Shown piece by piece: positions 35,478 through 52,846 of a stretch of DNA of 64,000 nucleotides. This DNA is from an uncultured Acidimicrobiales bacterium. GTDB taxonomy: Bacteria; Actinomycetota; Acidimicrobiia; Acidimicrobiales; SHLQ01. The notes under the pieces are model-generated. The model was not told where the DNA came from. It ran no database searches and saw only the letters and a program-made list of their open reading frames with translations. Numbering within the stretch: the first letter of the stretch is position 1; each line of letters starts with the position of its first letter. The position numbers and the translations under genes are program-made. The stretch is from positions 1 to 64,000 of the forward strand of contig CALLQB010000031.1 in assembly GCA_938015295.1 (NCBI GenBank), read 5' to 3'.

Positions 35478-38400
35478 TCAGCTCAGCTCGTCGGCGACGA
35501 CCCCGAGCTCCGCAGCCACGACAAAGGCGGATCGTCGAGTCATGAGCGGGATGTCGTCGACGAGAACTCCCAAACGAGCGGCCTCATTGAGCACGTCGGC
35601 TAGGGGGCGAACAAGCACTTCGCTCACCCAAGTAACGCTCATGATGTCGTCGCTGGCCTGGGTGTCGAGCTGCTGAACAATCCAATCCAGGGTCTGGTTG
35701 AGATCGGCCGCGGCGTTGGTGGTGGCGTCAGGCCAACCAAGTGAAGCGACCACTGGTTCGCTAAGGCCCATCCAATCTGCTTCGACATAGGAAGCCAGGC
35801 GGTGCCGGAGTGTGCGAAGCGCCCGGCGCCCATCAAAGGGGGGAAGAGTACTCAAGAGATCGGTGCGAATGTTGATGCCTGCTGCACCGATAGCCACGAG
35901 CGGAAGAGGTTGAGGCCGGTTCCGCACGGCCCAGGCCAGGACAAGATTGCCTTGCCCATCGTTGGCGGTCGCGCCGCCAAGCATTCGTGTGGTGGCCATC
36001 AACGACTCGACCAATGCCTGCCGCGATTCGCTGAGCGTCGGCAACCAGGCCGCTTCGATCTTTGCAACGCCGCTTTCGGTGAGATCGATCACGTGTGGTT
36101 GTTGGCTGTGGCCGCTGCCGGTGCTGCCCGAACCACTCGAACCCGAAGGTACCGCTGCGCTAGGCGAGGTTTCGATGCCGTACGGGGCTTGTTCTTCGCC
36201 GTTACGGGCACTCTCGTCGAACGACTTGCCTGCCGCATGGCGGCTGACTCGAGAAATCGACGACCTTTCATCGTCGCTATCGGTCGTGTCGAGTACCCAA
36301 CGGTTGGAAACCCGCCGGGAGGACGTGTCGTCGCCCATCGTGTCGACATCCTGGGTGCCCGAATTTTCACTGGTTGGATCTTCGGTGATCGAAAAACCAG
36401 CCATGTCCGACGCCGCTGCCATCAGTCGAATCGTCTGATCGGCAACCGCACGAGCAAGGCTCTCGCGCCGCTCAACATCACCGATTTGTCCCTCGATGGC
36501 AACCAACACCTGCCGGAAATCATCGTCGAAGGTCACGGCCCGGCCGAACCGGGATTCAAGTTCGTCGGAGCGGTCGCGAAGCAGTGCAAAGTGTTCCGTC
36601 TGGTCAACAGGGAACTCTAGGATTCCCTCGACCGTTTGGCGAAGGACACGAGCGCCAACCGCGATTCCTGATGAGAACGTGCGGAACCGGACGGCCCATT
36701 CTTCGGGTATGTCGCCGTTGGCAAACCAGTGGCATGTGTGGAGTTCGCTACGTTCGTGTACCGAACGCCAGAAGCCTCGGTACAGATTGTTCTGAGCCAG
36801 CACATCGCGGTCGATGACGATCTGCGATGAGCTCAGGACCTCGCGGCGCATTTCGGCCGCATCGACAAATCGTTCGACACGACGGGGCGAACACGCCCGC
36901 CGCAGCACATCGGCAAGTCCGTAGCCGATATCGGGCAGATGCACGGCCGGATCGATTGGCTCTTCACCCACGCTCGGCAGACCCGAGGCAAACGGGTACG
37001 CTCCACAAATCATCTCATAGAGAAGGACCCCGGCGGCAAAAAGGTCAGGGGCAACATCCCAGCGTGTCCGCCCAGAATCAGGATCTGGATCGGTGTAACG
37101 ATGCTGAGGACGGGGCAAGTCCTCGTGCTCAAAACGAAGGAGCGGGTCGACAAGAGCTACGCCACCGTGCACCCGAATGATGCTCGACGGCTTCACGTCG
37201 CCGTGAACGAACCCTTCGGATCGTAGCTGACGAAGTTGCGACCGCTCCTCGGCCCGAAGAAGGCCGGAAGCTCCCCAAGCCTCAAGCTCCGCGATGTGGC
37301 GCGCGTCGGGATGCATTTCGCTATACACCTGAAGCAACGCGTCAAGTACCGCGATGGCCTCGCCTGCAACGAGCCGCTCGCCGCTGTCGGTCAATCCTGA
37401 GAGAGGTGAGCCGTCGACGAAGTCGACGATCATCCATGACCGGTTCTTTGCGTCGAGCAGAACCTCGGGGCGCTGCAGCACCGAATGTTCGGGCGTTCGC
37501 CTGGCGACCCGTTCGAGTCCAGACGCCTTGATGGCCGGGTCGAATACCTTGCCGACCTTCACTCGACCGGTCATCCCATCGTGCAGAGCAAAGGTGGCCC
37601 ATGCTGGGCCGATACCCAATCGGCGCTGCACTTCAAACCGGTCGCCGATGATCTCATTGGCCTCGACCTGCGGAACGCCAGACAGCTCGATCGCGACTCG
37701 CTTTGAGGCAATGAGTTCGTCAAGTACGTCGAGCAATGGTTCAACCGAGGTCACCCGGCTTGCCGCTTCAGGTTCAAGCATTGACGCAAGCAGGTCGCTG
37801 AGCTGTTCGGGGCAGTTCTCGGGAGCGACGTACCGATGAGCCTGCAAGCTCATCGCATCGCTGGCGTAGAGGTAATGCAGCGTGGCTGCCAGCCCGAACA
37901 CGTCGACGCGGGGGTCGCCAGGCGCCGCCGCGCCGTTCTTCTTTGGCGGCGCGGTTTGCCGGGCGCGCAGTTCTGGAGCGACAAACAAGGGATCGATAAA
38001 GGTATCGCTCGCATGCGGCGCGTCGAAACGGCGTGACGCGGCGAGGGCATCGCTGCTTGCTGCGGCGCCTTCGCCTCGTGCCACCACTGCAGGTGCCCAG
38101 TCAAACAGCGGCGCCGGGCTCGTCAACCTTGCCCGCGCATCGGGGCACACGACAAGATGTTCGGGCGCGACTCTCCCGTGGACAACGCCACGATTGTGGG
38201 CCTGCGCCAGCGCCTCGGCAATGTCGCGGAACCAACCAAGCGCGACGGACTCTGCGGCATCGACGCCGCGGTGCAGCAGGCCGCGAAGCGTTCGGCCTTC
38301 TGGTTCGACATACACAAGGCACGCGCCCAGGAAATCGTCTTCGAACAGATCGAGAACCTCAGCAAAGCCAGCAAGTAAGGAGACTTCGGCTAGCTCTTCG

Positions 38401-39095
38401 TGTCGCGATCGCAACCGTGCGACATCGCCGCCTCGATCGGCGCGAAGCAAGCGCATACCAGGACTGTCTGGCGACGTGGAAATGACGCGGAACAGGTCAT
38501 GAAAGCGCGACGATTCAAGATGGTCGACGACTCGGTAGGAGCCGAATTCGAGTGGTTCGGTGCTTGTGTAGCCGCACCGATTGAGCGCGAGAAGTACTTG
38601 TTCGGCGGCCAAACCATCTCGGGCGTGATTTGCGACAAGGCTCGGATCAGAAACGGCTTTCGCCAGTCCCTTCGGTCCGGTGATTCCGGGCCGGCCATTG
38701 GCCGCAATGTCGAGCGACGCTGGTGTTTGGGTAAGAACAGTAAGTGGTTCGAACTGAAGGGGAGCGAGTCGGCGGTCGCGCCCGACGAGGTGCTCGCGAA
38801 GCACCCGTGTTTTGTGTCCGGTCAGTGCCTGCGGCGCCCAGCGCTCGCGACCGTCAACTGACCATTGAAACTCGTCACCGCTCACCGTGCCGGTCCAGTG
38901 ACAGAGCTCGACGACGAATGCGGCATGGGGAGCGAGCACGACTAGGTCGACTTGCCATGGCCGGCCGTGCACATCTCGAAACTGGAGATCGGGAACAAGA
39001 TGGTATGTCTCGGGCAAGAGCGCCTTCAGCGCGTTGACCACGCCGAGGGACGCGGAGGAAGGCACGCCGCCACCGAGGATCTGAACAGTCGCCAC
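35478..39095 (-). CDS. 1205-aa multidomain protein: NERD-like nuclease-related domain, then a degenerate protein-kinase-like domain, then a protein-kinase-like domain, then a long uncharacterised C-terminus
   Basis: The NERD-like segment is WQVDLVVLAPHAAFVVELCHWTG. Kinase-like 1 has VVHGRVAPEHLVV, with no catalytic Asp and no DFG. Kinase-like 2 has FVHGDVKPSSII plus ALVDP. It is a single uninterrupted ORF. Confidence 0.7.
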   Translation of the reverse strand: MATVQILGGGVPSSASLGVVNALKALLPETYHLVPDLQFRDVHGRPWQVDLVVLAPHAAFVVELCHWTGTVSGDEFQWSVDGRERWAPQALTGHKTRVLREHLVGRDRRLAPLQFEPLTVLTQTPASLDIAANGRPGITGPKGLAKAVSDPSLVANHARDGLAAEQVLLALNRCGYTSTEPLEFGSYRVVDHLESSRFHDLFRVISTSPDSPGMRLLRADRGGDVARLRSRHEELAEVSLLAGFAEVLDLFEDDFLGACLVYVEPEGRTLRGLLHRGVDAAESVALGWFRDIAEALAQAHNRGVVHGRVAPEHLVVCPDARARLTSPAPLFDWAPAVVARGEGAAASSDALAASRRFDAPHASDTFIDPLFVAPELRARQTAPPKKNGAAAPGDPRVDVFGLAATLHYLYASDAMSLQAHRYVAPENCPEQLSDLLASMLEPEAASRVTSVEPLLDVLDELIASKRVAIELSGVPQVEANEIIGDRFEVQRRLGIGPAWATFALHDGMTGRVKVGKVFDPAIKASGLERVARRTPEHSVLQRPEVLLDAKNRSWMIVDFVDGSPLSGLTDSGERLVAGEAIAVLDALLQVYSEMHPDARHIAELEAWGASGLLRAEERSQLRQLRSEGFVHGDVKPSSIIRVHGGVALVDPLLRFEHEDLPRPQHRYTDPDPDSGRTRWDVAPDLFAAGVLLYEMICGAYPFASGLPSVGEEPIDPAVHLPDIGYGLADVLRRACSPRRVERFVDAAEMRREVLSSSQIVIDRDVLAQNNLYRGFWRSVHERSELHTCHWFANGDIPEEWAVRFRTFSSGIAVGARVLRQTVEGILEFPVDQTEHFALLRDRSDELESRFGRAVTFDDDFRQVLVAIEGQIGDVERRESLARAVADQTIRLMAAASDMAGFSITEDPTSENSGTQDVDTMGDDTSSRRVSNRWVLDTTDSDDERSSISRVSRHAAGKSFDESARNGEEQAPYGIETSPSAAVPSGSSGSGSTGSGHSQQPHVIDLTESGVAKIEAAWLPTLSESRQALVESLMATTRMLGGATANDGQGNLVLAWAVRNRPQPLPLVAIGAAGINIRTDLLSTLPPFDGRRALRTLRHRLASYVEADWMGLSEPVVASLGWPDATTNAAADLNQTLDWIVQQLDTQASDDIMSVTWVSEVLVRPLADVLNEAARLGVLVDDIPLMTRRSAFVVAAELGVVADELS

Positions 39096-39290: not shown

Positions 39291-40187
39291 TTATGGCGCA
39301 TTCTGATAACTAGCAATTTGTGGGTTGGCGGCACAATGTGTGACGTCGGCCACGGTACCGGAAGACATGATTTCGCCAGCCGAAACGTCGGCGGTGGACG
39401 ACCATGCATGCCTTAAGCGTCGCGCAGCTGTTCGAAGCTGTCGTTCAGCTGGAACAATACAAAGCAACAACAACGCCGCCACGAGGCCGTCGACCCAATA
39501 GTGATTGCCCGTAATAGTAACGACAAGAAACGTCGCTACTGCGTGGAACAGGCCCCACCATCGCATGGGCCCACCGACCCGCCAACCAAACAGTCCAACG
39601 AGAAGCGCCCACGCAACGTGAATTGACGGCATCGCTTGCAACTGACCGGCGGTCTCATAGCCGAGAGCGGCGTAGACCGACTGGCCGTAAAGCGCTGGCG
39701 TGTCGACGACGTCGAACGCCTCGACGAACCGAGGAGGAGCAACCGGCAGCAGTTGCAACAGCAGACAAACCCCGGTTGAAGCCGCGAGAACGTTGCGTAG
39801 CGAACTGTAGTGTTCGCGATGCCGCACCCACATGAAAATGAGCATGGCAACCATGGCGGGCACGTGCACAAGTGCGTAGTAGCCGTTGTTCAGCTGAATA
39901 AACCAGCCGTAGGGCAGCACCGCCTGCTGTACTGAAGCTTCGTTTGGCAGCAGGAGTCGGCGCTCGAGATCCCACCACCACACCGCTCGGTCGTACGCGC
40001 CCTCAATGTCGTAGACCGAAAGTCGACCGGCCACGATCCAAATGGCGTACAACACCATGATGAGCGCCGCCTCCTGCGAGAACAAACTAATGACCCGAGG
40101 TCGCGGCCCCTCGAATCGCCTCGCGACCAAAGCCACACCGGCGAGAGCCGCCGCCATCCAAAGTGCCAGGTCCCAGGCAAGCCACAT
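39291..40187 (-). CDS. PAP2-superfamily membrane protein (PAP2_3 / inositolphosphoceramide-synthase-like phosphotransferase type)
   Basis: 298 aa, polytopic. MPSIHVAW (SxH) and GNHYWVDG (HxxxD) are conserved PAP2 C2/C3 motifs. Confidence 0.65.
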   Translation of the reverse strand: MWLAWDLALWMAAALAGVALVARRFEGPRPRVISLFSQEAALIMVLYAIWIVAGRLSVYDIEGAYDRAVWWWDLERRLLLPNEASVQQAVLPYGWFIQLNNGYYALVHVPAMVAMLIFMWVRHREHYSSLRNVLAASTGVCLLLQLLPVAPPRFVEAFDVVDTPALYGQSVYAALGYETAGQLQAMPSIHVAWALLVGLFGWRVGGPMRWWGLFHAVATFLVVTITGNHYWVDGLVAALLLLCIVPAERQLRTAARRLRHAWSSTADVSAGEIMSSGTVADVTHCAANPQIASYQNAP

Positions 40188-40190
40188 AGA

Positions 40191-41234
40191 TCAGGCGTCT
40201 TTCACAGCAACCCATGATTGCGTGGCAGCGCTCTCGACGAGTGCGTCGAGTGCCTCCATGTTTGCGACGGCATCAACCAACGGGGTCGGCGCTTCGATTC
40301 CTCTCGCCACAGCTTCGGCAAATCCGTCAGCCTGCAGCGCGTACTGGTCGCAAGCAGCAAAGGTTTCCTCGACCGTTCCGTTTGCGGTGGAAAGCCACGC
40401 TCGTGTTGGTTGACCAGCTGGCGCATTCACCGGAATTTCAATCTCAAAGCGCCCGCTTTCGAAATGCAGCACCGTCCGCTGGTACGGCTGCAGCTGCATT
40501 GAGCAGGTGAATGTCGCATGGCCGTGTTCGAAGCGAAGCATTCCCGACGTAAGCCGATCGACACCGAAACGAGCATCGATATCACTCATCGCCACGACGT
40601 GTGCCGGCTCGTCGCCAAAGAGCCAACGTGCCTGCGAGACCGGGTAACACCCAATATCGAACAGCGCTCCCCCGCCCCACTCCGGGTTATGTCGAATGTT
40701 TGCGGGATCTTCGGTGAAATAGCTGAAGTGTGTCTGCGTCGACCGCAAGCCGCCGAGGGCGCCTGAGTCGGCCAACGCCTTGGCTCGAACCCATTGTGGG
40801 TGGAAGCGGTACATGAACGCCTCCATCACGACAAGATCAGGGTAGTTCGCAGCGGCCGCGACCAGATGGCGCGCCTCGGTTGCGTTCAGTGCGACGGGTT
40901 TCTCGCACAGAACATGTTTGCCCGCCTCGAGGGCTTTGATCGTCCAGGGAACGTGCAGGTGGTTCGGTAGCGGGTTATAGATCGCGTCGATGTCGGGATC
41001 GGCCAGCAACTCTTCGTAGGTCCCGTACGCGCGTTCGACACCTGCCGCCTCAGCTGCATGCTGTGCGGCCGCGAGGGTCCGAGAAGACATCGCCAACACC
41101 TCGCCGCGACCAGAGCCGTTGATTGCAGGGATGACCTTGTTCGTGGCTATTCGCGCTGTAGAGAGCACACCCCAACGCAGCGTTGCCGCGTGAGACGCAC
41201 CAGTGGTCGAGGCAGCCGAAGATTCCATGCCCAA
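40191..41234 (-). CDS. Gfo/Idh/MocA family NAD(P)-dependent oxidoreductase
   Basis: LRWGVLSTARIA is the Rossmann N-terminus, and HVLCEKP is the EKP motif. Confidence 0.85.
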   Translation of the reverse strand: MGMESSAASTTGASHAATLRWGVLSTARIATNKVIPAINGSGRGEVLAMSSRTLAAAQHAAEAAGVERAYGTYEELLADPDIDAIYNPLPNHLHVPWTIKALEAGKHVLCEKPVALNATEARHLVAAAANYPDLVVMEAFMYRFHPQWVRAKALADSGALGGLRSTQTHFSYFTEDPANIRHNPEWGGGALFDIGCYPVSQARWLFGDEPAHVVAMSDIDARFGVDRLTSGMLRFEHGHATFTCSMQLQPYQRTVLHFESGRFEIEIPVNAPAGQPTRAWLSTANGTVEETFAACDQYALQADGFAEAVARGIEAPTPLVDAVANMEALDALVESAATQSWVAVKDA

Positions 41235-41261
41235 AGACTAGAAGACCCGAGCTGCAAGACC

Positions 41262-43181
41262 TCAGGCAGCCTTGGACTCAGCATCGTTGTACACGAAAAG
41301 CTCGGAGAACGACACGACCATGCTCGGGGCGCCCGAATAGGAACGCATCGTTGCCAGCTGCGCAGCGAAAAGTGCCTGAGAAAGTGCGCCCTGTGCCGCC
41401 CACTGGCCGGGCGAAAAGCCAACGGCAAAGCCCTCGTCGGTAGCCTTCTTCACGACGCCGGATAGCTCGGCAACGTTCTTCCCATCGTTGACAGCAACGA
41501 CGACGTCTTGGCCGACCACGAGCGAAAGCCTTGGCGTGAGATCGCCGACAGCTCGCGGGCCAATCGCGTCGGTCAGCAGGCCACCATTCATCGACGGGCG
41601 GACCAGGCGAACCCGACGACCATCGAGGGTGACCGGAATCGGAATTTCGAACCGCTGCGCGCCGCGACGCTCCGCCGCGAAACGCCACGAGGTCGCCCGT
41701 GCGAGCGCCACAAAGAGCACAAGAAGATCAAGCACCAGAAAGAACACCGCGACTGCTACCACGCCGAACTCGCGATACACGGTGGGCGTGAACCCAAGAA
41801 CACTGGCGATGAAGTACCCCCAAACCCCCAAACCAACAAGGGTGAGAAACATCAGGCTCGACGGCAGGTGGCCAAGTGCCCGCTCGTCGCCCGACCGGCC
41901 TTTGTTGGAGACGAGGAACTTGGCCCCCTGTGGCACCAGAAGCCGCCCGATGGCCCGGACGCTCGCCGGCAATCGAAAGAAGTCAAAGAGAAGTCCAGCG
42001 CCGAAACGGTGATACCCCCGCGACATCAGCATCATCGCCAGTTGTTGGCTGCAGAACACCGCCCCATACAGCGGGAGAAATACCTCGATTGGCGCGTCGA
42101 CGGGCGCCTTGCCGGACACTATGACCGCCAATGCCAGCGCGAAGTAGCCAAGGGTGCGAATGCCTTCGAACCAGCCACTCATGGTCGCCGCATACGACAG
42201 ACGTTGCCCCATGGTGAGCCCGCGCTTGAAAAAGGGTGTATCCGAACGAAGGATCTGCATCGCCCCAGCACCCCAGCGACGCCGCTGCACGGCGTATTCG
42301 ATGTAGCTGGCGGGAGCGAGTCCGCGAGCAAGAACTTCGTTGTGAAAGACCGTGTGCCACCCCTTACAGTGGAGCCGCATTGTGGTGTGAAGATCCTCGG
42401 TAAGACTCTCGGTCGCGACGCCACCGACCGACCGAAGTGCTTTTGTACGCAGCACAGCGTTTGTACCGCACCAGAACGCAGCGTTGTGACGATTCTTCCC
42501 CGGCTGGATGACCCGGTAGAACATCGCCTCTTCTTGATATGAGCCAACGTGCTCAAAGGAGTCTTCGTTGTAAAAGTCCTGCGGCGTCTGCACCAACGCC
42601 AACCGAGAATCGGCAAAGTAGCCGATCGTGTCAGTGAGAAACCCGGGCGCCGGGACATGGTCAGCATCGAGGATGCCAACGAGGTCACTATCGATGTACC
42701 GCAATGCGTGATTGAGGTTTCCGGCCTTCGCGTGTTTGTTGTCGGGGCGGTTGAGGTAGATCGCACCGAGGCTCTCCGCCATCTCACGTACCCACTCACG
42801 GTTGCCATCGTCAAGAACCCAGGTCTCGTGCGCCGGTTCAAGCGCAACCGCAGCGCTAACGGTGGGCAAAAGCACCTCGGGATCCTCGTTGTACGTCGGG
42901 ATCAGCATCGCTATCGAGAAGTCGGTTTGGTTCGTTGGTCGCGGCGGCACGACCGAGTCGACATCCCAAACAGAGAAGACGAACAACCCGAGACTGACGA
43001 AGCCGTGCACCTCAAGCAAAAAGAAGGGAACCGCGAGCCATAGCGCGTCGGGAGCGAGCGTGAAGGCCACCCGCCAACCGAGGTAGATCGCTCCGACAAC
43101 CATGGCGATGACCGCCAGCGCGCGCATCGTTGAACTTCGAGATGCCGAAGTTCGTGAAGATGAAAGATCAACGCTCGCCAT
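41262..43181 (-). CDS. BcsA-like processive family-2 glycosyltransferase with a C-terminal PilZ-like domain
   Basis: It has LIPTYNE, VLDDGNR, HAKAGNLNHAL, ILDADHVP, QTPQDF, TEDLHTTMRLH and QRRRWGAGAMQ (QxxRW). The C-terminus has RRGAQRF (RxxxR) and PSMNGG (xxSxxG). The ATG at 43181 has AAAGGAA 5 nt upstream, and the track ORF extends to 43202. Confidence 0.85.
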   Translation of the reverse strand: MASVDLSSSRTSASRSSTMRALAVIAMVVGAIYLGWRVAFTLAPDALWLAVPFFLLEVHGFVSLGLFVFSVWDVDSVVPPRPTNQTDFSIAMLIPTYNEDPEVLLPTVSAAVALEPAHETWVLDDGNREWVREMAESLGAIYLNRPDNKHAKAGNLNHALRYIDSDLVGILDADHVPAPGFLTDTIGYFADSRLALVQTPQDFYNEDSFEHVGSYQEEAMFYRVIQPGKNRHNAAFWCGTNAVLRTKALRSVGGVATESLTEDLHTTMRLHCKGWHTVFHNEVLARGLAPASYIEYAVQRRRWGAGAMQILRSDTPFFKRGLTMGQRLSYAATMSGWFEGIRTLGYFALALAVIVSGKAPVDAPIEVFLPLYGAVFCSQQLAMMLMSRGYHRFGAGLLFDFFRLPASVRAIGRLLVPQGAKFLVSNKGRSGDERALGHLPSSLMFLTLVGLGVWGYFIASVLGFTPTVYREFGVVAVAVFFLVLDLLVLFVALARATSWRFAAERRGAQRFEIPIPVTLDGRRVRLVRPSMNGGLLTDAIGPRAVGDLTPRLSLVVGQDVVVAVNDGKNVAELSGVVKKATDEGFAVGFSPGQWAAQGALSQALFAAQLATMRSYSGAPSMVVSFSELFVYNDAESKAA

Positions 43182-43240
43182 GATTCCTTTGTTTTCGACC
43201 ATGTGGCGGGGCTACCTGATGAGTCAAATAACCCATTCGC

Positions 43241-44425
43241 TTGAGACGGTTTTTGGCCGATCAACTGGTGGTGCGGCAACGTCTAACACTCGGAATCTTG
43301 ATGGTGACCGCCGTCATCCTCCTCGCGACCTCGATGGTTGCGATCGCGATCCGCCCAGAAGTGGACCTAACGGAACCATCGTTGTCGGTTGTGTCACCGC
43401 GTTTAGTGGGGGCCGAACCAATCGACGTTGGTGCCTCGGTTCCCGGCGAGGGTGGGTTGTCGGTGGTCCCGACGTTCGAGCAGCTCTATGAGTATGAGTT
43501 TCTCGACGACTTCCCCGACGGCAAGGTCATTGGCGTGACAACGCGGTCGGGCCTCGAGTCTGAGCTCGACAAGTTCGCGTTTTCGGCTGGTCGCCTGCCC
43601 AACCTCATCCAGGTCACCGCGGGCTGGGCCAGCGATGATTATCAGCCATGGTTTACCGAACGAATCGCCAACCGGGGTGCAATGCCGGTGATCTCCTGGG
43701 AACCTTGGAATTCCGCGCAGGAAAGTACCGTCGATCAGAAGCGGAGCGAGCAACCCGAGTACGCACTGGCCCGCATCGTTGCCGGCGACTTCGACGCCTA
43801 TATCGACGACTGGGCAGAGAACCTCGCCGACTGGGGTCACCCTGTCGCCATGCGATTCGCCCATGAGATGAATGGCTACTGGTATCCGTGGGCCGAGGGC
43901 CGAAATGGCAACGCACCCGGGTCCTACGTCGATGCATGGCGTTACGTGCATGACCGTTTCACCGAGGCAGGGGCCGACAACGTCCTTTGGCTCTGGTCGC
44001 CGAACGTCAGCTACGCAGGCTCGTCTCCTCTGGCGCCGTTGTACCCCGGCGACGACTATGTTGACTGGATTGGTGTGGTTGGCTACTTCGGACATGGTGC
44101 TGAAACGCCGACCGCCTATCCCACCTTCGACCAACTCTTCGGACCAACCCTCGACGAGCTCGAACTGCTGTCGGACAAGCCGGTGCTCATTACCGAAACG
44201 GGAGCGACCGAGCGGGGCGGCTTCAAACCCGAGTGGATAACCCACACGCTCAATGAGATTGCCACCAATCCTCGGATGATGGGCTTTATTTGGTTCGATG
44301 TCGACAAAGAGACCGACTGGCGCATCACCAGCTCAGCCGAGTCGGCGACGGCCTTCAAAGCCGCCGCTGCTGATTCCCGTTACGCGCCCGCCGGCCCGGT
44401 CCTTGCCGAGCGCGAAGACAGCTAG
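43241..44425 (+). CDS. Membrane-anchored glycoside hydrolase family 26
   Basis: It has an N-terminal TM anchor LTLGILMVTAVILLATSMVAIAI. GH26 blocks are MRFAHEMNGYWYPW and LITETG. The start codon is uncertain (TTG 43241, GTG 43268 or ATG 43301). Confidence 0.78.
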   Translation: MRRFLADQLVVRQRLTLGILMVTAVILLATSMVAIAIRPEVDLTEPSLSVVSPRLVGAEPIDVGASVPGEGGLSVVPTFEQLYEYEFLDDFPDGKVIGVTTRSGLESELDKFAFSAGRLPNLIQVTAGWASDDYQPWFTERIANRGAMPVISWEPWNSAQESTVDQKRSEQPEYALARIVAGDFDAYIDDWAENLADWGHPVAMRFAHEMNGYWYPWAEGRNGNAPGSYVDAWRYVHDRFTEAGADNVLWLWSPNVSYAGSSPLAPLYPGDDYVDWIGVVGYFGHGAETPTAYPTFDQLFGPTLDELELLSDKPVLITETGATERGGFKPEWITHTLNEIATNPRMMGFIWFDVDKETDWRITSSAESATAFKAAAADSRYAPAGPVLAEREDS

Positions 44426-44427
44426 CG

Positions 44428-45291
44428 TTATACCGCTAGCTTCGAATTTTCGACGACCGCAAAGCTCAGCACCGCGAGAACCAACGCCATGCCACCAACT
44501 TGGATCGCGGTGACGGTCTCATCGAAGAGCACAAAAGCTCCGGCGGTTGAAAACACCGGAACGATCAACGTCAGCAGCGAAAGAAGCGTCAGGCTCACGT
44601 GGGCGTGAGCCCAGCTGATCAGCAGATGTCCGGTGCTTGGAAATGCGACCAGACCCAGCACACTCCACCAAGAAGACCCGGTGGGGACAGCAATGCCGCC
44701 CGAGTCGATCAGCAGCACGACGAACAACACGGGTACGCCGGCGATCAGCGAATGCGTTTGTAGCGTGATGCCGCTAAGGGTCTCTCGCGCAACCTTGCCC
44801 AGCACGAAGTAGCCAGCAAACAGCAACAGCGCGACCACGGCAAGCGTGTCGCCAAGCGGGTTGATCGAAAATCCTGCAGTGGAACCGAAGATGACGGCAG
44901 CGACGCCGAGCAGCGCCAGAACCGTGGCGACCATTACGGCCCGCGAGACGCGCTCATCGAATCTGCGCATGGCAACGCCGAGTAGCAGCAGTGGCGTCAT
45001 CGAGCCAATGACAGTCACGTTGGCGACCGACGTGTTCTTGATGGCCACAAAGAATGCGGCAATCTCCAGACCGAGAACCACGCCCATCGGCGCCGCCACC
45101 CTAAAGTCGGACCACCGCAGCGGACCGACAACCACTTGGTGTCCAATTGCATAGATGACGGCAGCGATCAGGTAGCGCCAGAAGGCAATCTGTGGTCCGG
45201 TGAGGTCGGTTCCTCGAACGATGAGGTTGCCAAGCGACCAAAACGAGACCGCAACAAGGACAGCAATTTTCCCAAGACGAGCCTTTGACAC
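44428..45291 (-). CDS. EamA family DMT transporter
   Basis: 287 aa with about 10 TM segments and two EamA-like halves. Confidence 0.75.
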   Translation of the reverse strand: MSKARLGKIAVLVAVSFWSLGNLIVRGTDLTGPQIAFWRYLIAAVIYAIGHQVVVGPLRWSDFRVAAPMGVVLGLEIAAFFVAIKNTSVANVTVIGSMTPLLLLGVAMRRFDERVSRAVMVATVLALLGVAAVIFGSTAGFSINPLGDTLAVVALLLFAGYFVLGKVARETLSGITLQTHSLIAGVPVLFVVLLIDSGGIAVPTGSSWWSVLGLVAFPSTGHLLISWAHAHVSLTLLSLLTLIVPVFSTAGAFVLFDETVTAIQVGGMALVLAVLSFAVVENSKLAV

Positions 45292-45300
45292 CAGCGGAGG

Positions 45301-47319
45301 CTAGTTCACGCGACGCGAACCTCGGATGAATGCACCTCGAGCGGCTCCGGAGGAATCGAACCGCCAGTTTCCTTCGCCGTTGATCCCGGACTTGTCGACC
45401 TGGAACCAAAGCACGGCAGATACCTGTGGACGGTTGTCGAGGAACTTGAACATGTTGGTGATCCATGCCGCTTTGTCGCCGCCACCTTCGACACTTGAAG
45501 TCTCGGCGATGATGACCGGACGGGAGGTAAGTTGCGCGATCTCGTCCAGCGAAGGTTCGAAGATTTCGCGGAAGCTGCGCCATGGACCCATTCGTTCGAT
45601 GACGCCGCCGCCGTTATAGCCGTCGAGACCAATGAGGTCGACGTAGGCGTCGCCCGGGTACAGCTCGGTGTACGAAACACCGACCGGAGCGCCGACGTTG
45701 GGCGACCAAACCCATTGCACGTCAGTGGCACCAGCGTCTTGGAACACCTGCCAGGCATGGCGGTATGCGGCCACGACATGTGCGGGAGTATTGCCCCGTG
45801 CCCCGGTTGACCAGGGGTACCAATTGCCGTTCATCTCGTGCATGAAACGAAGAAGCACCGGTTGGTCGAGTTTGTCGAGTTCTTTGGCCCAGCGCTTGAG
45901 GTGGTTGTCGATCTCGCCAGTGATGATTGCGTACGCTGGGTTGTAGAAGTTCTCGATCGCCCACGGCTCGAGCGTAAGCATCACTACGTGTCCAGCCTGC
46001 TGGGCCTCGCGGATTTCTTTGAGTGGGACCCTTTGCTCGCCGTTGGTCGGGTCGATAAAGCCGTGCACGATGTCGGCTTTGCGGCCGACCGTGTTTTCGA
46101 AGAGGGCTGCTTCGTCGAGGGTCCAAGGAGTCGAAGCGCCGGTGACGCCGACCAGGAGTTTTCCGTCGAGCTTCGCCAGGCTTGGGCGTGTCGGCGAGGG
46201 AACAGCGCTTCCGACGGGGGTTACTACCGCTACCTTGCCGTTGAATTTTGACGGTGCCGAGAACACGAGTTCGATCGCCTTCGCCCGTCTGGTGGGAACC
46301 GAGATCTCGATGGTTTCACCCGCTGCGGTGAGTTTCCACGTCTGTACAACGACGCCGTCGACCTTTGCGGTGACCGTGACTGCTCCCGACACCGAACTGG
46401 CGAGTGGGTCAAGGTGAAGACCAGCCGCGAAGTGTCGGTAGTCGCGTTTGAGCGGATACGAAATGGTGCTTGTAGTCGTGGTTGACCCGGCGATGAGACG
46501 ACAGGAGTTGGAGGCGCCGATAACTCGGCCTCCCGAGGAAATCTTGCCGGACTCCCATTTGCCACCCGACGAGACGCAGCCTGAGGCTGAGCTTCGAAAG
46601 GCGAGCCAATACGGCTCACAGTTCACCGAGTTGGCCTCGTCCTGGCACCCGTCGACCCCAGCGCCGCCAAGAAGCGTGTCGGTGCCGTAGCCGCCATCGA
46701 GAAAGTCGTCGCCGCGGCCGCCAGCAAGGCGATCGTTGTCGACGTCGCCGTGCAGTTCGTCGAGACCTTCGCCGCCCATGAGGTTGTCGTTGCCAGCGCC
46801 GCCTCGGAGCGTGTCGTTGCCGCCGCTGCCGCCAAGAACATCGTTGCCGTCGCCGCCCTCGAGTCGGTCGCTCCCTACCCCGCCATCGAGATAGTCATCA
46901 CCCGGTCCGCCGACTACCCGGTCGTTGCCCGGGCCCGCGCAAATAATGTCGTTGCCTGCTCCCGCGGAGATTCGGTCGGCGCCCCCTCGGCCGACGATGA
47001 CGTCGTTGCCAGCGGTACCCACCAAGACATCGGGTCCGGCCGTACCGAGGATTGTGGCCTGTCGTCCCTGGCACGTGGTGATCGCCTGCGAGCGGTACGT
47101 GGCAAGAACAGACGAGACAGAGACCGTCTCGTCTGGTTGATCCTGAACTGGTTGATACTGGTCTGGTTGATACTGGTCTGGTTGATCCTGAACTGGTTGG
47201 TTATGTGCCAACGAGGGCTGTGCGGAAAGCTCTACTGCTCCACCGCCAGCTATGGGGAGAACGGCCGTTGCCAAGAGGGCGACAACCAGCACTAACACCA
47301 AATACAACGTACGTTTCAC
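45301..47319 (-). CDS. Secreted GH26 glycoside hydrolase with N-terminal QPDQY repeats and RTX-type Ca-binding nonapeptide repeats
   Basis: The signal peptide follows the GTG at 47319 (KRTLYLVLVLVVALLATAV). There are more than 10 GGxGxD-type repeats (GGAGNDNLMGGEGLDELHG...). The GH26 block LRFMHEMNGNWYPW lies in the C-terminal half. Confidence 0.8.
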   Translation of the reverse strand: MKRTLYLVLVLVVALLATAVLPIAGGGAVELSAQPSLAHNQPVQDQPDQYQPDQYQPVQDQPDETVSVSSVLATYRSQAITTCQGRQATILGTAGPDVLVGTAGNDVIVGRGGADRISAGAGNDIICAGPGNDRVVGGPGDDYLDGGVGSDRLEGGDGNDVLGGSGGNDTLRGGAGNDNLMGGEGLDELHGDVDNDRLAGGRGDDFLDGGYGTDTLLGGAGVDGCQDEANSVNCEPYWLAFRSSASGCVSSGGKWESGKISSGGRVIGASNSCRLIAGSTTTTSTISYPLKRDYRHFAAGLHLDPLASSVSGAVTVTAKVDGVVVQTWKLTAAGETIEISVPTRRAKAIELVFSAPSKFNGKVAVVTPVGSAVPSPTRPSLAKLDGKLLVGVTGASTPWTLDEAALFENTVGRKADIVHGFIDPTNGEQRVPLKEIREAQQAGHVVMLTLEPWAIENFYNPAYAIITGEIDNHLKRWAKELDKLDQPVLLRFMHEMNGNWYPWSTGARGNTPAHVVAAYRHAWQVFQDAGATDVQWVWSPNVGAPVGVSYTELYPGDAYVDLIGLDGYNGGGVIERMGPWRSFREIFEPSLDEIAQLTSRPVIIAETSSVEGGGDKAAWITNMFKFLDNRPQVSAVLWFQVDKSGINGEGNWRFDSSGAARGAFIRGSRRVN
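47132..47206. repeat. 15-bp in-frame tandem repeat (5 copies) encoding (Q/V)DQP(D/V)QY-type pentapeptides inside the RTX-GH26 gene
   Basis: The five units are gtctggttgatcctg / aactggttgatactg / gtctggttgatactg / gtctggttgatcctg / aactggttggttatg. Confidence 0.85.
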
Positions 47320-47457
47320 GGAGAAGAATCCCAGGACCTGTTGGCGAACGGCGAAATGAAATCCTATTAAACGTATTGAAAATACGCACAACGGGCGGAA
47401 ATCACTCTACGTGACAATGTAGGTCAAAATGCCCACAAATGGTAGTTCGGCCAATGC

Positions 47458-48219
47458 TTACCTGAGCAGAAGCCGATGAGCATGCAGTTCGTTGTACAAA
47501 TCCACTGCTTGCGCCGCCACCGATTGCAGGGCAATCGGGAGATCTCGCAATGTTGGCAACGGCCCCGGCGGCGGACCAAAACCCGTCGATTGTTTCACCG
47601 AGTCATACCAAACCGACGCCCAGATCCCGTCGGTTGAACGCCCGCCCGCCGGCCACGCCAACATGGCGTCGACAAACGGCACACCAAACGACTCGCACAT
47701 CGCTTCGAGGTACGCACGTGGTGCGCGGAGAAAGTCATCCGAATCAATAACCACCCGCGCCCGGTCGAGTAACGCAAGTTGCTGAGGCAACCCCGTCTCG
47801 TGAAGTGGTAGGAGCTCCCACTTTTGGGTATAGGACGCCATCACCCGAAACGGGTGTCGCAATAACAAACCATGAGTGAGCGCATCGAGCCATTCTCGCT
47901 GCCCATCCGGCGGCAAGTGAGCGCTCATATGTTTCTGGTACGAGATGCACGAGCGAGAAGAGTCGGCTGGACTCTCGACGCATCGCCTCGTCGCCTCGCG
48001 AAGATCTGCCGGACCGGATGCGATCACCTCGTCGCGAAGTGGATGGTCCATGCCAGTCTCGGCAAGGTGCCAGGCGTAGAGGGGTTCGTCGATGACCTCG
48101 CAGTCGGGTCTGTTCTCCCAACTCCGCATCATCGCAGTCGACAGATTGCGCGGACCCGACCACATAGCTAGGCGAACCGGAGCCCGGTCTGGCTGTGCAG
48201 AAGCATCGGTTGAAGGCAC
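47458..48219 (-). CDS. Sulfotransferase-like protein (tentative)
   Basis: 253 aa. The N-terminal MWSGPRNLSTAMMRSW resembles the PAPS-phosphate loop of a bacterial sulfotransferase-like family. The assignment is from memory only. Confidence 0.4.
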   Translation of the reverse strand: MPSTDASAQPDRAPVRLAMWSGPRNLSTAMMRSWENRPDCEVIDEPLYAWHLAETGMDHPLRDEVIASGPADLREATRRCVESPADSSRSCISYQKHMSAHLPPDGQREWLDALTHGLLLRHPFRVMASYTQKWELLPLHETGLPQQLALLDRARVVIDSDDFLRAPRAYLEAMCESFGVPFVDAMLAWPAGGRSTDGIWASVWYDSVKQSTGFGPPPGPLPTLRDLPIALQSVAAQAVDLYNELHAHRLLLR

Positions 48220-50210: not shown

Positions 50211-51590
50211 TTAGGCGTTGAGCAGCAGCCAGAGGCCGAGGCAGCTGTAGAGCACCATCACGAGCAACATCACGTACTGGCTTCGCAGCGCGTCGGTTTC
50301 GCCGCCACCTGCTGCAACAGCTAGCTGCATCGACGAGTCGTGCGCCACAAGCACCGCCCCGATATGGCCAAAAAGAATCGCCAACACTTGCACCCACGCG
50401 ATGAGATCGACACCGATAAGGGTGAAGTTGATGGTGCCATCCGCGGCGCCGAAAAGGTCCCAACCTTTGCCAGCTGGGTCCGATAGTCGGAACCAGAACG
50501 TCTGGGTTTCGTCGATCAACAGCTGTGCGTAGTGGGCGATCGCGTAGCCAAAAACTATCGGCACCAGCGACGGTGTGAACTTGTCGGTGATAAACGAAGC
50601 CTCATGACCAGTCACTTTGCATGTCCACCCGATACCGACGCCGAAAAGGGCGGTGACCAGCAGGATCGAAAGAATGAGACCCACCGTCAGTATCGCTGCG
50701 CCTCCCCATCCCGATGGGCGACCAAAAAGGTCGCGACCAGCCTCGCTCTCGACGAAGCCGTCAAAGGTCGTGCCGCCGAGAACGATAAGCAGCGTGGCAA
50801 GCGTGCCCGGAAGCACCGGCATGGTCGCCAACCCTGACATGGGAGCGCGCACACGCAACGCAGGACCCGGCGTTCCTGCGCCAGGCGAATAGCGGGCCGT
50901 TGGATCACGCTGTTCGGCGTACAAGGGCGCCATCGCAGCAACCATCGCGAACAGTGCAGAGAACGGCTCGTGCTCGGCGACCCACGCAGCCCCCCACTTC
51001 GCTGCAAGCACCACCGACACAACGAGGTGGGCAACGAGCATAAACGCCAAAACTCGCGGCGAGGTGCCCGAAGGGTGGGCTAACTCAAAGAACAAAAAGA
51101 CGAACAGCCCGGCCGCCGCTGGGAGATGCCCCAGACCCGCTGGCGGATCGGCCACCGACAGACCCGCACGAACCGCAAGTGCTTCTACGCCGCGAGCGAT
51201 GGTACCGACCGGATTGATTGCTTGCCAGAGGTCGCCGACGAGCCCGGCGAGAAGTTGAGCGCCGACCCACACGATGACGTACAAGGTGACCGGCAGAATG
51301 TTCTCTGCCTCGGAATCGGTACCGAACAGTCCCGCCCAGATCGCAATGCCCAGCAAGCCGAGAGCCGCTGCCCGACCGATTGCTAACACTAGTCGAATGG
51401 CGAACGAACCGCTGTCGAGCAGCTGCCGGCCAGAAGCTGCTCGAACAAGTCGAGGTTCCTTCCAGAGCACACCGAGGGCAACAAAGGAGAGCCCCAGCGC
51501 AAGAGCCGCCGCCCAGGTAAACATCCAGAGAGGCAACGGCAGATCGCCTCGGGACCCCACACCGTGGGCAAGCAGGTAGCTAGACATCAT
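50211..51590 (-). CDS. Polytopic membrane protein (about 12 TM), unknown function
   Basis: 459 aa, highly hydrophobic, with N-terminus HGVGSRGDLPLPLW. It lies 41 nt downstream of the His-rich lipoprotein gene. Confidence 0.55.
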   Translation of the reverse strand: MMSSYLLAHGVGSRGDLPLPLWMFTWAAALALGLSFVALGVLWKEPRLVRAASGRQLLDSGSFAIRLVLAIGRAAALGLLGIAIWAGLFGTDSEAENILPVTLYVIVWVGAQLLAGLVGDLWQAINPVGTIARGVEALAVRAGLSVADPPAGLGHLPAAAGLFVFLFFELAHPSGTSPRVLAFMLVAHLVVSVVLAAKWGAAWVAEHEPFSALFAMVAAMAPLYAEQRDPTARYSPGAGTPGPALRVRAPMSGLATMPVLPGTLATLLIVLGGTTFDGFVESEAGRDLFGRPSGWGGAAILTVGLILSILLVTALFGVGIGWTCKVTGHEASFITDKFTPSLVPIVFGYAIAHYAQLLIDETQTFWFRLSDPAGKGWDLFGAADGTINFTLIGVDLIAWVQVLAILFGHIGAVLVAHDSSMQLAVAAGGGETDALRSQYVMLLVMVLYSCLGLWLLLNA

Positions 51591-51631
51591 CGTGTCCGGC
51601 GATCATCACGAGGCACCAAGCTCGAAGAGGT

Positions 51632-52846
51632 TCATGAGGCACTGAGCTCGAAGAGGAGCAGGCCTGAATCTTCAAGCTCAATCTCGACGATTCCGGGGAT
51701 AGCGGCAACAAAGTCGATAGTCGACGCCTCGCCCTCCACCAGATCGGCGAAAATGTCGTAACCATGGACATGCACATGGTCGGCAGTATCGCTGGTCACC
51801 ACAAGCCGCACCATGTCGCCGACGCCGACCTCGACCCGGTCGGTCAGTGAACCCGCTGACATAACCATGACGGTGCCGTCGTTGTAGGTGGCTTCGACGA
51901 GCACGGGTGCAACCGTGTCGCTCGCTACCGACTCGTCGCCTGTTCCCGCAGCGGAATCGTTCGAGACAACAACCGTGGCTCGCACCGGCTCGCCATCGCG
52001 CACGTACGTAGCGTGGTTGTTAGCGCTCAGCTCGACCTCGACGGTGTGCTCGCCATCGCCCAACTCAGGAACGTGAAACCACGTGCCGTAGATACGCCCT
52101 TGTTTCACGCCGTCAATAAACAGATGTAGGTGCCCTTCATTAGCCACGTGCTCGCCGCCTACCTTTTCAGGGGCCAGGTCGAAGTGCGAAAGCGACACCG
52201 CAAAATTGTTGCCGTCGCCAGCCTTCGCAACCGGAACCCGGGTGAGCGCCACACTCGCCTCCCCGCCGTCAACGGTGTTGGCAGCGTCGACAGTGTCATG
52301 GTCATGCGCCGCCGCCTCGCCGACTACAACTACCTGTGATGCTGAGATTCGCTCGCCCCCGGTCGCATACGGAGCATGAGTATTTGCATTGAGTTCGACT
52401 TCGATCGTGTGTTCACCGGCGCTGAGATTGTCGACGTGAATCCACTCGTTGTAGAACCGCTGCACTTTTTCACCATCGACGATGAGGTGCATGTGTCCCT
52501 CGCCGTCAACATGTGCAGTGCTAACGCTTTCTGGAGCGATTGTGAGATTTGTTACCTCGACTCTCACGTTGACCCCTGATTTGGCGTCGGGCGAAGCCTC
52601 GATCGACACGGCCGGTGCGGCATCACTTGCCACGTCGATCATTTCGCTATGGGCCAAATCATGGTCGTGACCGCCCTCGGCCGCGTTCGTACTTTCTTCT
52701 TTTTCTTCTTCGGCGGCTGGGATCGACTCAGCTGCTCGGGTGGTGGTCGTAGCATCGCTTCCGCACGCGGCAACAGCCAGCGCGAGCGCGATCAAGCAAA
52801 CGACAGAACGCCCGAAATTGGGAGTGTTCATTGGTTGTCCTTGCAA
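51632..52846 (-). CDS. His-rich lipoprotein with two tandem DUF4399-like domains and a C-terminal cupredoxin-like domain (putative metal binding)
   Basis: It has a lipobox LALAVAAC. There is an internal ~95-aa duplication carrying EGHMHLIVDG / EGHLHLFIDG and GEHTIEVEL / GEHTVEVEL. It also has HDHD motifs and HVHVHGYD near the C-terminus. Confidence 0.65.
   Translation of the reverse strand: MQGQPMNTPNFGRSVVCLIALALAVAACGSDATTTTRAAESIPAAEEEKEESTNAAEGGHDHDLAHSEMIDVASDAAPAVSIEASPDAKSGVNVRVEVTNLTIAPESVSTAHVDGEGHMHLIVDGEKVQRFYNEWIHVDNLSAGEHTIEVELNANTHAPYATGGERISASQVVVVGEAAAHDHDTVDAANTVDGGEASVALTRVPVAKAGDGNNFAVSLSHFDLAPEKVGGEHVANEGHLHLFIDGVKQGRIYGTWFHVPELGDGEHTVEVELSANNHATYVRDGEPVRATVVVSNDSAAGTGDESVASDTVAPVLVEATYNDGTVMVMSAGSLTDRVEVGVGDMVRLVVTSDTADHVHVHGYDIFADLVEGEASTIDFVAAIPGIVEIELEDSGLLLFELSAS

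Follow-up and report, generated by a model that had tools for sequence, protein, structure and literature searches.

A BcsA-Family Glycosyltransferase Paired with a Membrane-Anchored GH26 Protein in a Candidate β-Glucan Exopolysaccharide Locus of an Acidimicrobiales Bacterium

Results

Organization of the Locus

A window of 64,000 nucleotides (the whole stretch of DNA that was analyzed) from contig CALLQB010000031.1 of an uncultured Acidimicrobiales bacterium harbors a gene cluster at positions 39291-47391 which is filled by six large open reading frames (ORFs), as determined by ORF calling and Pfam searches (Table 1). The cluster contains a gene for a family 2 glycosyltransferase (GT2) of the BcsA family and a divergent gene for a membrane-anchored glycoside hydrolase of family 26 (GH26), a pair that recurs in genomic contexts that are otherwise unrelated. 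The further products are a second GH26 protein fused to RTX repeats, an EamA/DMT transporter, a Gfo/Idh/MocA oxidoreductase and a PAP2_3 protein. This gene content had been put forward in a first-pass annotation made from the sequence alone and was recovered by the Pfam searches, except that PAP2_3 and EamA had exchanged places in the list of neighbors (they are located at 39291-40187 and 44428-45291, respectively) and that an adjoining Sulfotransfer_5 gene just outside the cluster had been overlooked. The latter lies on the same strand as the RTX-GH26 gene, 66 bp upstream of it.

The gap between the divergent GT2 and GH26 genes is 38 bp according to mechanical ORF calling, or 68-143 bp when the start codons of homologues are applied. 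The Gfo/Idh/MocA gene lies 27 bp downstream of the synthase gene and is separated by 3 bp from the PAP2_3 gene. Pfam models for BcsB, BcsC and GH8 found no match in the large ORFs between 27.8 and 57 kb, in keeping with the earlier statement that the synthase is unaccompanied by a BcsB, BcsC or BcsZ-type gene, and the loci of relatives likewise were devoid of Pfam matches to BcsB, BcsC or GH8. The nearest named loci belong to metagenome-assembled genomes of Acidimicrobiales (69-74% identity), which agrees with the actinobacterial background that had been proposed. The GC content is uniform, at about 0.58-0.63, across the window and therefore gives no compositional sign of recent transfer of the cluster.

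The Synthase Belongs to the BcsA Family but Departs from Canonical BcsA

The GT2 protein comprises two N-terminal transmembrane (TM) helices, a GT-A domain, interface helices, a C-terminal TM bundle and a predicted PilZ-derived domain. The signature motifs of BcsA are present (LDDG, DADH, TED, QRRRW and the FxVTxK-type gating loop FLVSNK), and each of the motifs quoted in the first-pass annotation (KAGNLN, DADH, QTPQ, TED, QRRRW, RRGAQR and PSMNGG) was located in the translation. The key residues of the catalytic motifs are invariant or nearly so in 119 homologues, and residues F429, V431 and K434 of the gating loop are kept in 118-119 of these 119 sequences. An AlphaFold2 (AF2) model built with the alignment of the 119 homologues attained a pLDDT of 91.2 and a pTM of 0.90, and its top matches in Foldseek were the BcsA structures 9b8v and 4p00 with TM-scores, normalized to the query, of 0.79-0.83 over the whole chain. 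As the motifs are intact and the predicted fold is that of BcsA, the protein is likely to be a processive synthase that translocates its product.

The best solved relatives of the protein are the BcsA proteins of Escherichia coli (2e-68) and Rhodobacter sphaeroides (1e-56), and identity was 31.6% to E. coli BcsA and 32% to BgsA of Sinorhizobium meliloti. The score against the CelA model TIGR03030 was 341.7 bits compared to a curated equivalog cut-off of 699.1, and that against NF008558 was 276.5 bits compared to a cut-off of 992. More than 2,700 proteins among the scored candidates belong to the family of this protein at E ≤ 1e-20. Homologues with 43-57% identity, among the matches listed, derive from Acidimicrobiales, other Actinomycetota and Chloroflexota, and are annotated at source as 'cellulose synthase (UDP-forming)'. 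In a rough neighbor-joining tree, in which the branches of seven loci with unreliable ORFs were ignored, the family stands apart from both E. coli BcsA and rhizobial BgsA. Of the phylogenetic placement that had been recommended in the first-pass annotation, this covers BcsA and BgsA, and product specificity is not assignable from the tree. Taken together, the protein belongs in the BcsA family without being a canonical BcsA.

The Membrane-Anchored GH26 Protein Is a Conserved Partner of the Synthase

The first GH26 gene, whose probable true start is the GTG at 43271, was described in the first-pass annotation as divergent from the synthase gene across a short intergenic gap and as encoding a membrane-anchored product, and each of these features was found. 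In 16 orthologues, both catalytic glutamates are invariant, and so is an N-terminus in which a basic stretch precedes a single TM helix. By the positive-inside rule, this arrangement places the catalytic domain outside the membrane.

Close relatives, in which the GT2 is 66-79% identical to the window protein, keep the order sulfotransferase, RTX-GH26, TM-anchored GH26, divergent GT2, Gfo/Idh/MocA and PAP2_3. This conservation alone proves little because the genomes concerned are syntenic far beyond the cluster. In contrast, the TM-anchored GH26 gene still is directly upstream of and divergent from the GT2 gene where the latter has only 43-54% identity and the neighborhoods are wholly different (loci L006/L010, L011, L013, L015, L047, L052, L070 and L073 in the numbering used here for loci of relatives). 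Overall, a TM-anchored GH26 adjoins the GT2 in about 20 of 88 loci, unrelated contexts included; the hydrolase gene is downstream of the synthase gene in L045 and L022 and is present in two copies in L056. In L011 (9051-9967), the GH26 gene is split into two short ORFs past the HEMNG motif, which reflects either a frameshift or pseudogene, or an assembly error.

Neighbor clusters were assembled by all-versus-all comparison of the ORFs within ±6 kb of the GT2 gene in the 88 loci. GH26 was the commonest conserved neighbor, being found in 21 loci. The other conserved neighbors in this comparison, in which not all clusters were domain-scanned, reflected lineage-specific synteny only and none resembled BcsB, HlyD or GlxA. 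These neighbors included MiaA/MiaB-like, SGNH-like and molybdopterin-oxidase-like proteins in Chloroflexota, as read from cluster representatives and unconfirmed by Pfam, and a histidine kinase in some Acidimicrobiales.

The association also was examined in reverse with a metagenome scan seeded with the GH26 alignment, which provided 21 loci with at least 3 kb of flanking DNA on both sides. A CelA-like GT2 gene was present within 3 kb of GH26 in 16 of the 21, and 12 of these displayed a same-strand order of GT2 followed by GH26. The GT2 and GH26 ORFs overlap in L097 and L169, whose GT2 proteins match TIGR03030 and are without PilZ motifs. The reverse test and the distant loci together thus characterize this GH26 subfamily as a recurrent, dedicated partner of cellulose-synthase-like enzymes. 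The co-conservation of GH26 and synthase that was anticipated in the first-pass annotation is therefore borne out down to 43% GT2 identity and in unrelated contexts: the membrane GH26 is a conserved partner of the synthase and not a chance neighbor.

Two sets of loci are recorded in addition. In soil metagenomes (L092-L099, L102-L107, L112, L153, L155, L168 and L169), a lichenase-like GH26 gene is directly downstream of a gene for a CelA-like GT2 that lacks PilZ; L097 includes an EAL-GGDEF gene two genes upstream and a GT4 gene downstream, and L169 includes a Wzx-like flippase, a PMT_2 protein and a second GH26. The cultured Blastococcus sp. KM273128 (L080; 3503-5707 and 10001-11725) possesses a family GT2 with 46% identity and canonical RxxxR and DxSxxG motifs, and a 734-amino-acid ORF containing GH26 is 4.3 kb upstream of its gene. 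This strain is a possible experimental model. A further cultured carrier, Paraconexibacter antarcticus, has a family GT2 with a PilZ match, and canonical PilZ motifs are found also in L052 and L073.

Table 1. Positions of genes, domains and motifs of the locus in the 64,000-nucleotide window.
Feature	Position	Strand	Basis and remarks
PAP2_3 integral-membrane phosphatase/phosphotransferase family	39291..40187	-	Pfam PF14378, 3.4e-35; last gene of the GT2-Gfo-PAP2 string
Gfo/Idh/MocA sugar oxidoreductase	40191..41234	-	Pfam
BcsA-family GT2 synthase, predicted processive, 646 aa	41262..43202	-	Pfam GT2 and Cellulose_synt
Putative PilZ-derived C-terminal domain, residues ~505-620	41343..41690	-	AF2, hhalign
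Second PilZ motif, degenerate (R-PSMNGG; Arg for Asp/Asn)	41580-41597	-	Translation
RxxxR motif, intact (RGAQR)	41652-41666	-	Translation
Gating-loop motif FLVSNK	41901-41918	-	Translation
Synthase catalytic motifs, span	42273..42728	-	Translation
QRRRW	42273-42287	-	Translation
TED	42393-42401	-	Translation
QTPQ	42579-42590	-	Translation
DADH	42657-42668	-	Translation
KAGNLN	42711-42728	-	Translation
Membrane-anchored GH26, 394 aa	43241..44425	+	Pfam GH26, 4.8e-17; putative extracytoplasmic endo-β-glucanase-like enzyme
Membrane GH26, catalytic Glu209	43865-43867	+	Alignment to CtLic26A
Membrane GH26, catalytic Glu319	44195-44197	+	Alignment to CtLic26A
EamA/DMT transporter, between both GH26 genes	44428..45291	-	Pfam EamA, 2.1e-23
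RTX and GH26 multidomain protein, 696 aa	45301..47391	-	HemolysinCabind, 2.4e-31; GH26, 1.5e-18
Second GH26 catalytic domain, Glu519 and Glu630	45328-46107	-	Pfam, alignment
Weak NPCBM-like module	46255-46479	-	E 0.0015, below cut-off
RTX Ca-binding repeats	46642-47055	-	HemolysinCabind PF00353
QPDQY repeat of RTX-GH26	47133-47199	-	TRF; 15 nt x 4.5 tandem array
Sulfotransfer_5 sulfotransferase	47458..48219	-	Pfam PF19798, 9.6e-62

Both GH26 Domains Resemble a Lichenase

The two GH26 catalytic domains, which are 40% identical, scored 62.7 and 67.7 bits against PF02156 for which the cut-off is 20.2. Their catalytic glutamate pairs (E209/E319 and E519/E630) are conserved and aligned to those of CtLic26A, which is the GH26 domain of CelH from Clostridium thermocellum (PDB 2bv9, 2v3g and others), with the acid/base residue in the HEMNG motif. 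CtLic26A was the best solved relative of both domains in PDB searches, with matches over the full catalytic domain of E 3.5e-38 for the membrane protein and E 4.7e-42 for RTX-GH26. Other GH26 matches were weaker, being 1e-8 to 1e-10 for mannanases and 1.6e-9 for a β-1,3-xylanase. On these comparisons, both domains are classified as lichenase-type, nearest to CtLic26A, and not as members of the mannanase or β-1,3-xylanase groups.

The second protein combines its GH26 domain with RTX repeats and QPDQY repeats, as had been stated in the first-pass annotation, and carries a signal or anchor sequence. The RTX repeats scored 107.7 bits against PF00353 (cut-off 23) in four stretches, and 27-nt periodic arrays occupy 46770-46978 within the RTX region. 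RTX-GH26 is kept only in relatives in which GT2 identity is at least 66%; L047 and L056 carry second GH26 copies.

The C-Terminal Domain and c-di-GMP

The C-terminal segment of the synthase was modeled by AF2 as six β-strands (residues 522-596) followed by a helix (601-619), which is the PilZ arrangement, and pLDDT values in the block were mostly 78-97. The complete model superposes on BcsA 4p00 along the full chain with a TM-score of 0.83. When the tail profile of the subclade that includes the window protein was compared by hhalign with canonical PilZ-positive relatives, a match of 99.5% with E 3.7e-23 was obtained. Moreover, the alignment of the GT2 to E. coli BcsA extends into the RxxxR motif, and many homologues at 45-50% identity carry PF07238 in precomputed matches. 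In searches of the PDB, the profile of canonical tails retrieved the PilZ structures of Alg44, BcsA1 and PlzD first, with weak E values of 0.02-0.3, and that of the subclade C-termini retrieved Lpg0364 alone with a marginal E value of 0.047. We take Lpg0364 to be a PilZ-type protein. The model and the profile comparisons indicate that the domain is PilZ-derived, as far as can be judged from prediction.

Other observations weigh against the c-di-GMP-controlled system that was envisaged in the first-pass annotation. The isolated C-terminal 139 amino acids of the window protein did not match PF07238 even at E ≤ 10, an outcome that the first-pass annotation itself had named as counting against its reading, so that the PilZ-like module stands by its derivation but not by the Pfam model, and 8 of 14 subclade members matched PF07238 weakly with a best value of 1.1e-4. 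Arginines R513 and R517 of RxxxR are present in all 119 sequences. In contrast, the Asp or Asn residue of the D/NxSxxG motif is found in none of 15 sequences of the window subclade compared to 92 of 104 in the rest of the family: the second motif of the window protein reads R535-P-S-M-N-G, with S537 and G540 conserved. Mutation of the Asp residue in D/NxSxxG abolishes c-di-GMP binding in other PilZ proteins, including Alg44 and YcgR. Furthermore, no GGDEF-motif ORF was found among the long ORFs of the window. The two EAL-like strings in the window ORFs probably are due to chance, and no Rfam family, c-di-GMP riboswitches included, attained the gathering threshold in the window. With the failure of PF07238 and the loss of Asp/Asn in the subclade, control by c-di-GMP is unproven, and we regard it as doubtful both that the enzyme is c-di-GMP-controlled and that c-di-GMP is the ligand of the domain in this subclade.

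The resting state may differ also. Ala298 (42309-42311), at a position which is variable over the 119 family members, stands at what we take to be the equivalent of Glu371 of R. sphaeroides BcsA from hand mapping via the E. coli alignment. Glu371 is the auto-inhibitory salt-bridge partner of the first arginine of RxxxR in BcsA (PMC10374906). As the equivalent position is Ala or variable, the classical resting-state lock may not exist in the family. In RiGT2 of Romboutsia ilealis, the PilZ domain has both motifs and is needed for activity, yet c-di-GMP was not bound in vitro (PMC10374906).

A histidine kinase gene adjoins the GH26/GT2 pair in L006/L010/L013 and also in L007, L014, L058, L063 and L067 (Acidimicrobiales), the L006 protein having a GAF-HisKA-HATPase organization. 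These neighbors hint at two-component rather than c-di-GMP control.

Accessory and Flanking Genes

The best named PDB relatives of the Gfo/Idh/MocA protein are a sugar 3-ketoreductase and aldose oxidoreductases. The gene is confined to close relatives and is missing in L009, and PAP2_3 was found solely in L001-3, L008 and L009. The PDB contained no relative of PAP2_3, and the search with the sulfotransferase was uninformative. EamA produced no tblastn match in any of 87 related loci, and in relatives the two GH26 genes are directly convergent. EamA looks like a recent insertion that is specific to the window and probably is outside the system. As they are unconserved beyond close relatives, the membership of EamA, Gfo/Idh/MocA and PAP2_3 in the system is unproven.

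The Sulfotransfer_5 gene is syntenic in eight close-relative loci, and GH26-linked loci at greater distance are without it. The encoded enzyme may modify the polymer, in which case the exopolysaccharide (EPS) may be sulfated. A 2026 study of Actinoplanes described a Wzx/Wzy EPS cluster that includes two sulfotransferases and a GH26, stated that such a GH26-containing cluster was previously uncharacterized, and noted that sulfated EPS in bacteria had been reported for cyanobacteria only (PMC13390465).

Beyond the cluster, the minus strand at 35478-39095 encodes a 1205-amino-acid protein in which an N-terminal NERD nuclease-related domain is accompanied by a protein-kinase match below threshold. 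The gene is syntenic in close relatives and appears to be unrelated to the EPS genes. Two adjacent minus-strand ORFs at 50211-52846, of 459 amino acids (no Pfam match) and 404 amino acids (weak DUF4399/CE2_N match), are syntenic with the cluster in relatives and may encode secreted proteins; a helicase gene lies between this pair and the cluster. No tRNA genes were found in the window.

Discussion

A Candidate β-Glucan System and Its Likely Product

The interpretation that we favor is that the locus specifies a BcsB-independent, synthase-dependent β-glucan EPS system of a monoderm Acidimicrobiales bacterium in which a GH26 protein is the partner hydrolase, an explanation to which we give an even chance of being correct in full. 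The GT2 would polymerize a β-glucan, presumably from UDP-glucose, and translocate the chain through its own TM channel. The membrane GH26, tethered by one N-terminal helix at the outer face of the membrane, would trim, release or quality-control the emerging chain. In this capacity it would fulfill the part that is played by the periplasmic BcsZ (GH8) in proteobacteria or by CcsZ (GH5), which is tethered to the membrane, in clostridia: the pairing is evident from co-conservation, and the activity is predicted. The secreted RTX-GH26 protein, with Ca-binding RTX repeats and a possible carbohydrate-binding module, may remodel or disperse the matrix. The PilZ-derived domain probably still gates the active site via the invariant arginines of RxxxR. 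Modification of the precursor or of the polymer by Gfo/Idh/MocA, PAP2_3 and the sulfotransferase is possible and would be confined to this lineage.

Since both hydrolases are of predicted lichenase type, the product is likely to be a β-glucan that is non-crystalline and contains β-1,4 and probably also β-1,3 bonds. A mixed-linkage (1,3;1,4)-β-glucan (MLG) or otherwise non-crystalline β-glucan is accordingly favored as the polymer, but tentatively and at somewhat less than an even chance. Several considerations count on the other side. The GT2 is equidistant from BcsA and BgsA, so that its sequence does not tell whether it makes cellulose or MLG. Identity of the GH26 domains to CtLic26A is roughly 30-35%, a distance at which substrate specificity can shift, and membership of a glycoside hydrolase family predicts EPS chemistry poorly. 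Most Chloroflexota and many Actinomycetes members of the GT2 family are without GH26 within 10 kb, and the hydrolase thus is not obligatory. Finally, the accessory genes may be bystanders because they are conserved only in a closely syntenic clade.

The alternative that survives best is an ordinary cellulose (β-1,4-glucan) system in which GH26 has been recruited for the task of BcsZ, CcsZ or CslZ, which we judge to be serious but rather unlikely. The closest curated models and structures of the synthase are those of cellulose synthases, its homologues bear this annotation, and exchanges of the partner hydrolase family are known already, from GH8 to clostridial GH5 and Streptomyces CslZ (PMC8892547). 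Yet both hydrolases are nearest to a lichenase that requires a β-1,3 linkage beside the scissile β-1,4 bond, the synthase attains only half of the equivalog cut-off of TIGR03030, and MLG synthesis is proven for BcsA-like synthases with PilZ-type tails (PMC10374906).

A non-glucan product, either β-mannan, β-1,3-xylan or a heteropolymer, is improbable. Most characterized GH26 enzymes are β-mannanases, the sugar-donor specificity of GT2 proteins is unreadable from their motifs and the adjacent oxidoreductase could alter a nucleotide sugar, but the lichenase match is ~30 orders of magnitude better than that to any mannanase or xylanase in the PDB, and the nearest characterized relatives of the synthase all use UDP-glucose. 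Thus, the suggestion in the first-pass annotation that the polymer may not be cellulose is retained, whereas its mannan and xylan options are disfavored by the grouping of both GH26 domains with CtLic26A, which leaves MLG and cellulose as the realistic alternatives. Least probable of all is that the GH26 proteins serve in the catabolism of β-glucans from plants or algae in the environment and stand beside an independently acting synthase by chance: most family members have no adjacent GH26, the RTX- and carbohydrate-binding-module-bearing protein resembles a secreted degradative enzyme, and synteny in the closest relatives reaches unrelated housekeeping genes, but the divergent GT2/GH26 pair recurs where every other neighbor differs, a CelA-like GT2 is encoded no more than 3 kb from 16 of 21 metagenomic GH26 relatives, and the enzyme has a membrane tether and no genes for sugar uptake next to its own.

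In a bolder version of the favored β-glucan interpretation, the divergent GT2/GH26 pairs and the soil GT2-GH26 operons would constitute an undescribed, widespread class of (1,3;1,4)-β-glucan EPS systems whose signature 'Z' component is a lichenase-type GH26 and which would occur in Actinomycetota and further bacteria of soil and marine habitats; here the polymer would be sulfated by Sulfotransfer_5 and the PilZ-derived domain would regulate without c-di-GMP. We consider this combination unlikely as a whole.

Significance

No paper that combines GH26, cellulose synthase and PilZ was found in full-text literature searches, and no GH26-coupled type is among the Bcs systems listed in a recent comprehensive review (PMC8892547). 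The description of the GH26-coupled BcsA-type system as undescribed in the first-pass annotation therefore holds within these searches. Synthase-dependent β-glucan secretion is known from proteobacteria, clostridia and Streptomyces, but not from Acidimicrobiia or from the actinobacterial and chloroflexal BcsA-like family, and the conserved GH26 partner furnishes a simple genomic marker for a subset of such systems. MLG so far is proven only in rhizobia and Romboutsia; as the partner is lichenase-like, the polymer may occur in abundant uncultured actinobacteria of marine and soil habitats. The loss of Asp in the subclade beside an invariant RxxxR is a natural experiment on the PilZ tail when c-di-GMP binding is compromised, and the adjacent sulfotransferase touches on the question of sulfated EPS beyond cyanobacteria. 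Further study is most warranted for the broader GT2-GH26 association and for the connection to lichenases.

Comparison with Known Systems

The window GT2 shares with the BcsA/BcsB/BcsZ/BcsC systems of E. coli and Cereibacter (Rhodobacter) sphaeroides the GT2 fold, the catalytic motifs, an FxVTxK-type gating loop and a C-terminal β-barrel at the PilZ position with RxxxR, and in both cases a dedicated endoglucanase, here predicted, is encoded alongside. Unlike these systems, the window locus is without BcsB, BcsC and a GH8 BcsZ, and the partner hydrolase is GH26. At its N-terminus the GT2 has no more than two TM helices, its identity to E. coli BcsA is 31.6% and its score is half of the TIGR03030 cut-off; the protein has lost the D/N of D/NxSxxG and has Ala298 at the presumed Glu371 position. 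Thus, the equivalog score, the BcsB partner and a complete PilZ motif, by which a BcsA is recognized, are all wanting.

BgsBA of S. meliloti also includes a BcsA-related GT2, which makes MLG and is 32% identical to the window protein, and BgsA is activated by c-di-GMP through its C-terminal region (PMC5567048). The tail of BgsA is a non-PilZ c-di-GMP-binding segment and its partners in this diderm host are the HlyD-type BgsB and TolC (PMC5567048), whereas the window tail is predicted to be PilZ-derived. No HlyD gene was found in the window locus by Pfam, no GH26 gene was found within 4 kb of bgsA in S. meliloti or Agrobacterium fabrum, and BgsA falls outside the family in the neighbor-joining tree. 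The window system consequently is not BgsBA. CtLic26A is a cellulosomal, catabolic lichenase, whereas the window GH26 proteins are membrane-anchored or RTX-fused and are genetically coupled to a synthase. The CslA-GlxA-CslZ system of Streptomyces, which was compared by its description, resembles the window locus in its actinobacterial cellulose-synthase-like GT2, its dedicated endoglucanase and the absence of BcsB, but it needs the copper oxidase GlxA and its CslZ is described as BcsZ-like (PMC8892547).

The clostridial CcsA/CcsB/CcsZ system is Gram-positive and has a membrane-tethered (α/β)8-barrel endoglucanase in the role of BcsZ (Scott et al., 2020, PMC7710045; PMC8892547). CcsZ is a GH5 enzyme that is specific for cellulosic substrates (PMC8892547), whereas the window partner is GH26. 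Acyltransferases and a BcsB-like protein are further products of the Ccs operons, and the window locus has none of these, with CcsA itself compared by description. The MLG synthase RiGT2/Cgs of R. ilealis likewise is a Gram-positive, BcsA-like GT2 without BcsB and with a C-terminal PilZ β-barrel; it shows that this architecture can make (1,3;1,4)-β-glucan, and its export is inferred to be BcsB-independent (PMC10374906). Compared by description, RiGT2 keeps both PilZ motifs (RTSER and NLSEKG), unlike the window GT2, and a partner lichenase or GH26 is not mentioned in the searched text (PMC10374906). Overall, clostridial CcsA/CcsZ and Romboutsia RiGT2 are the closest analogues of the Acidimicrobiales system.

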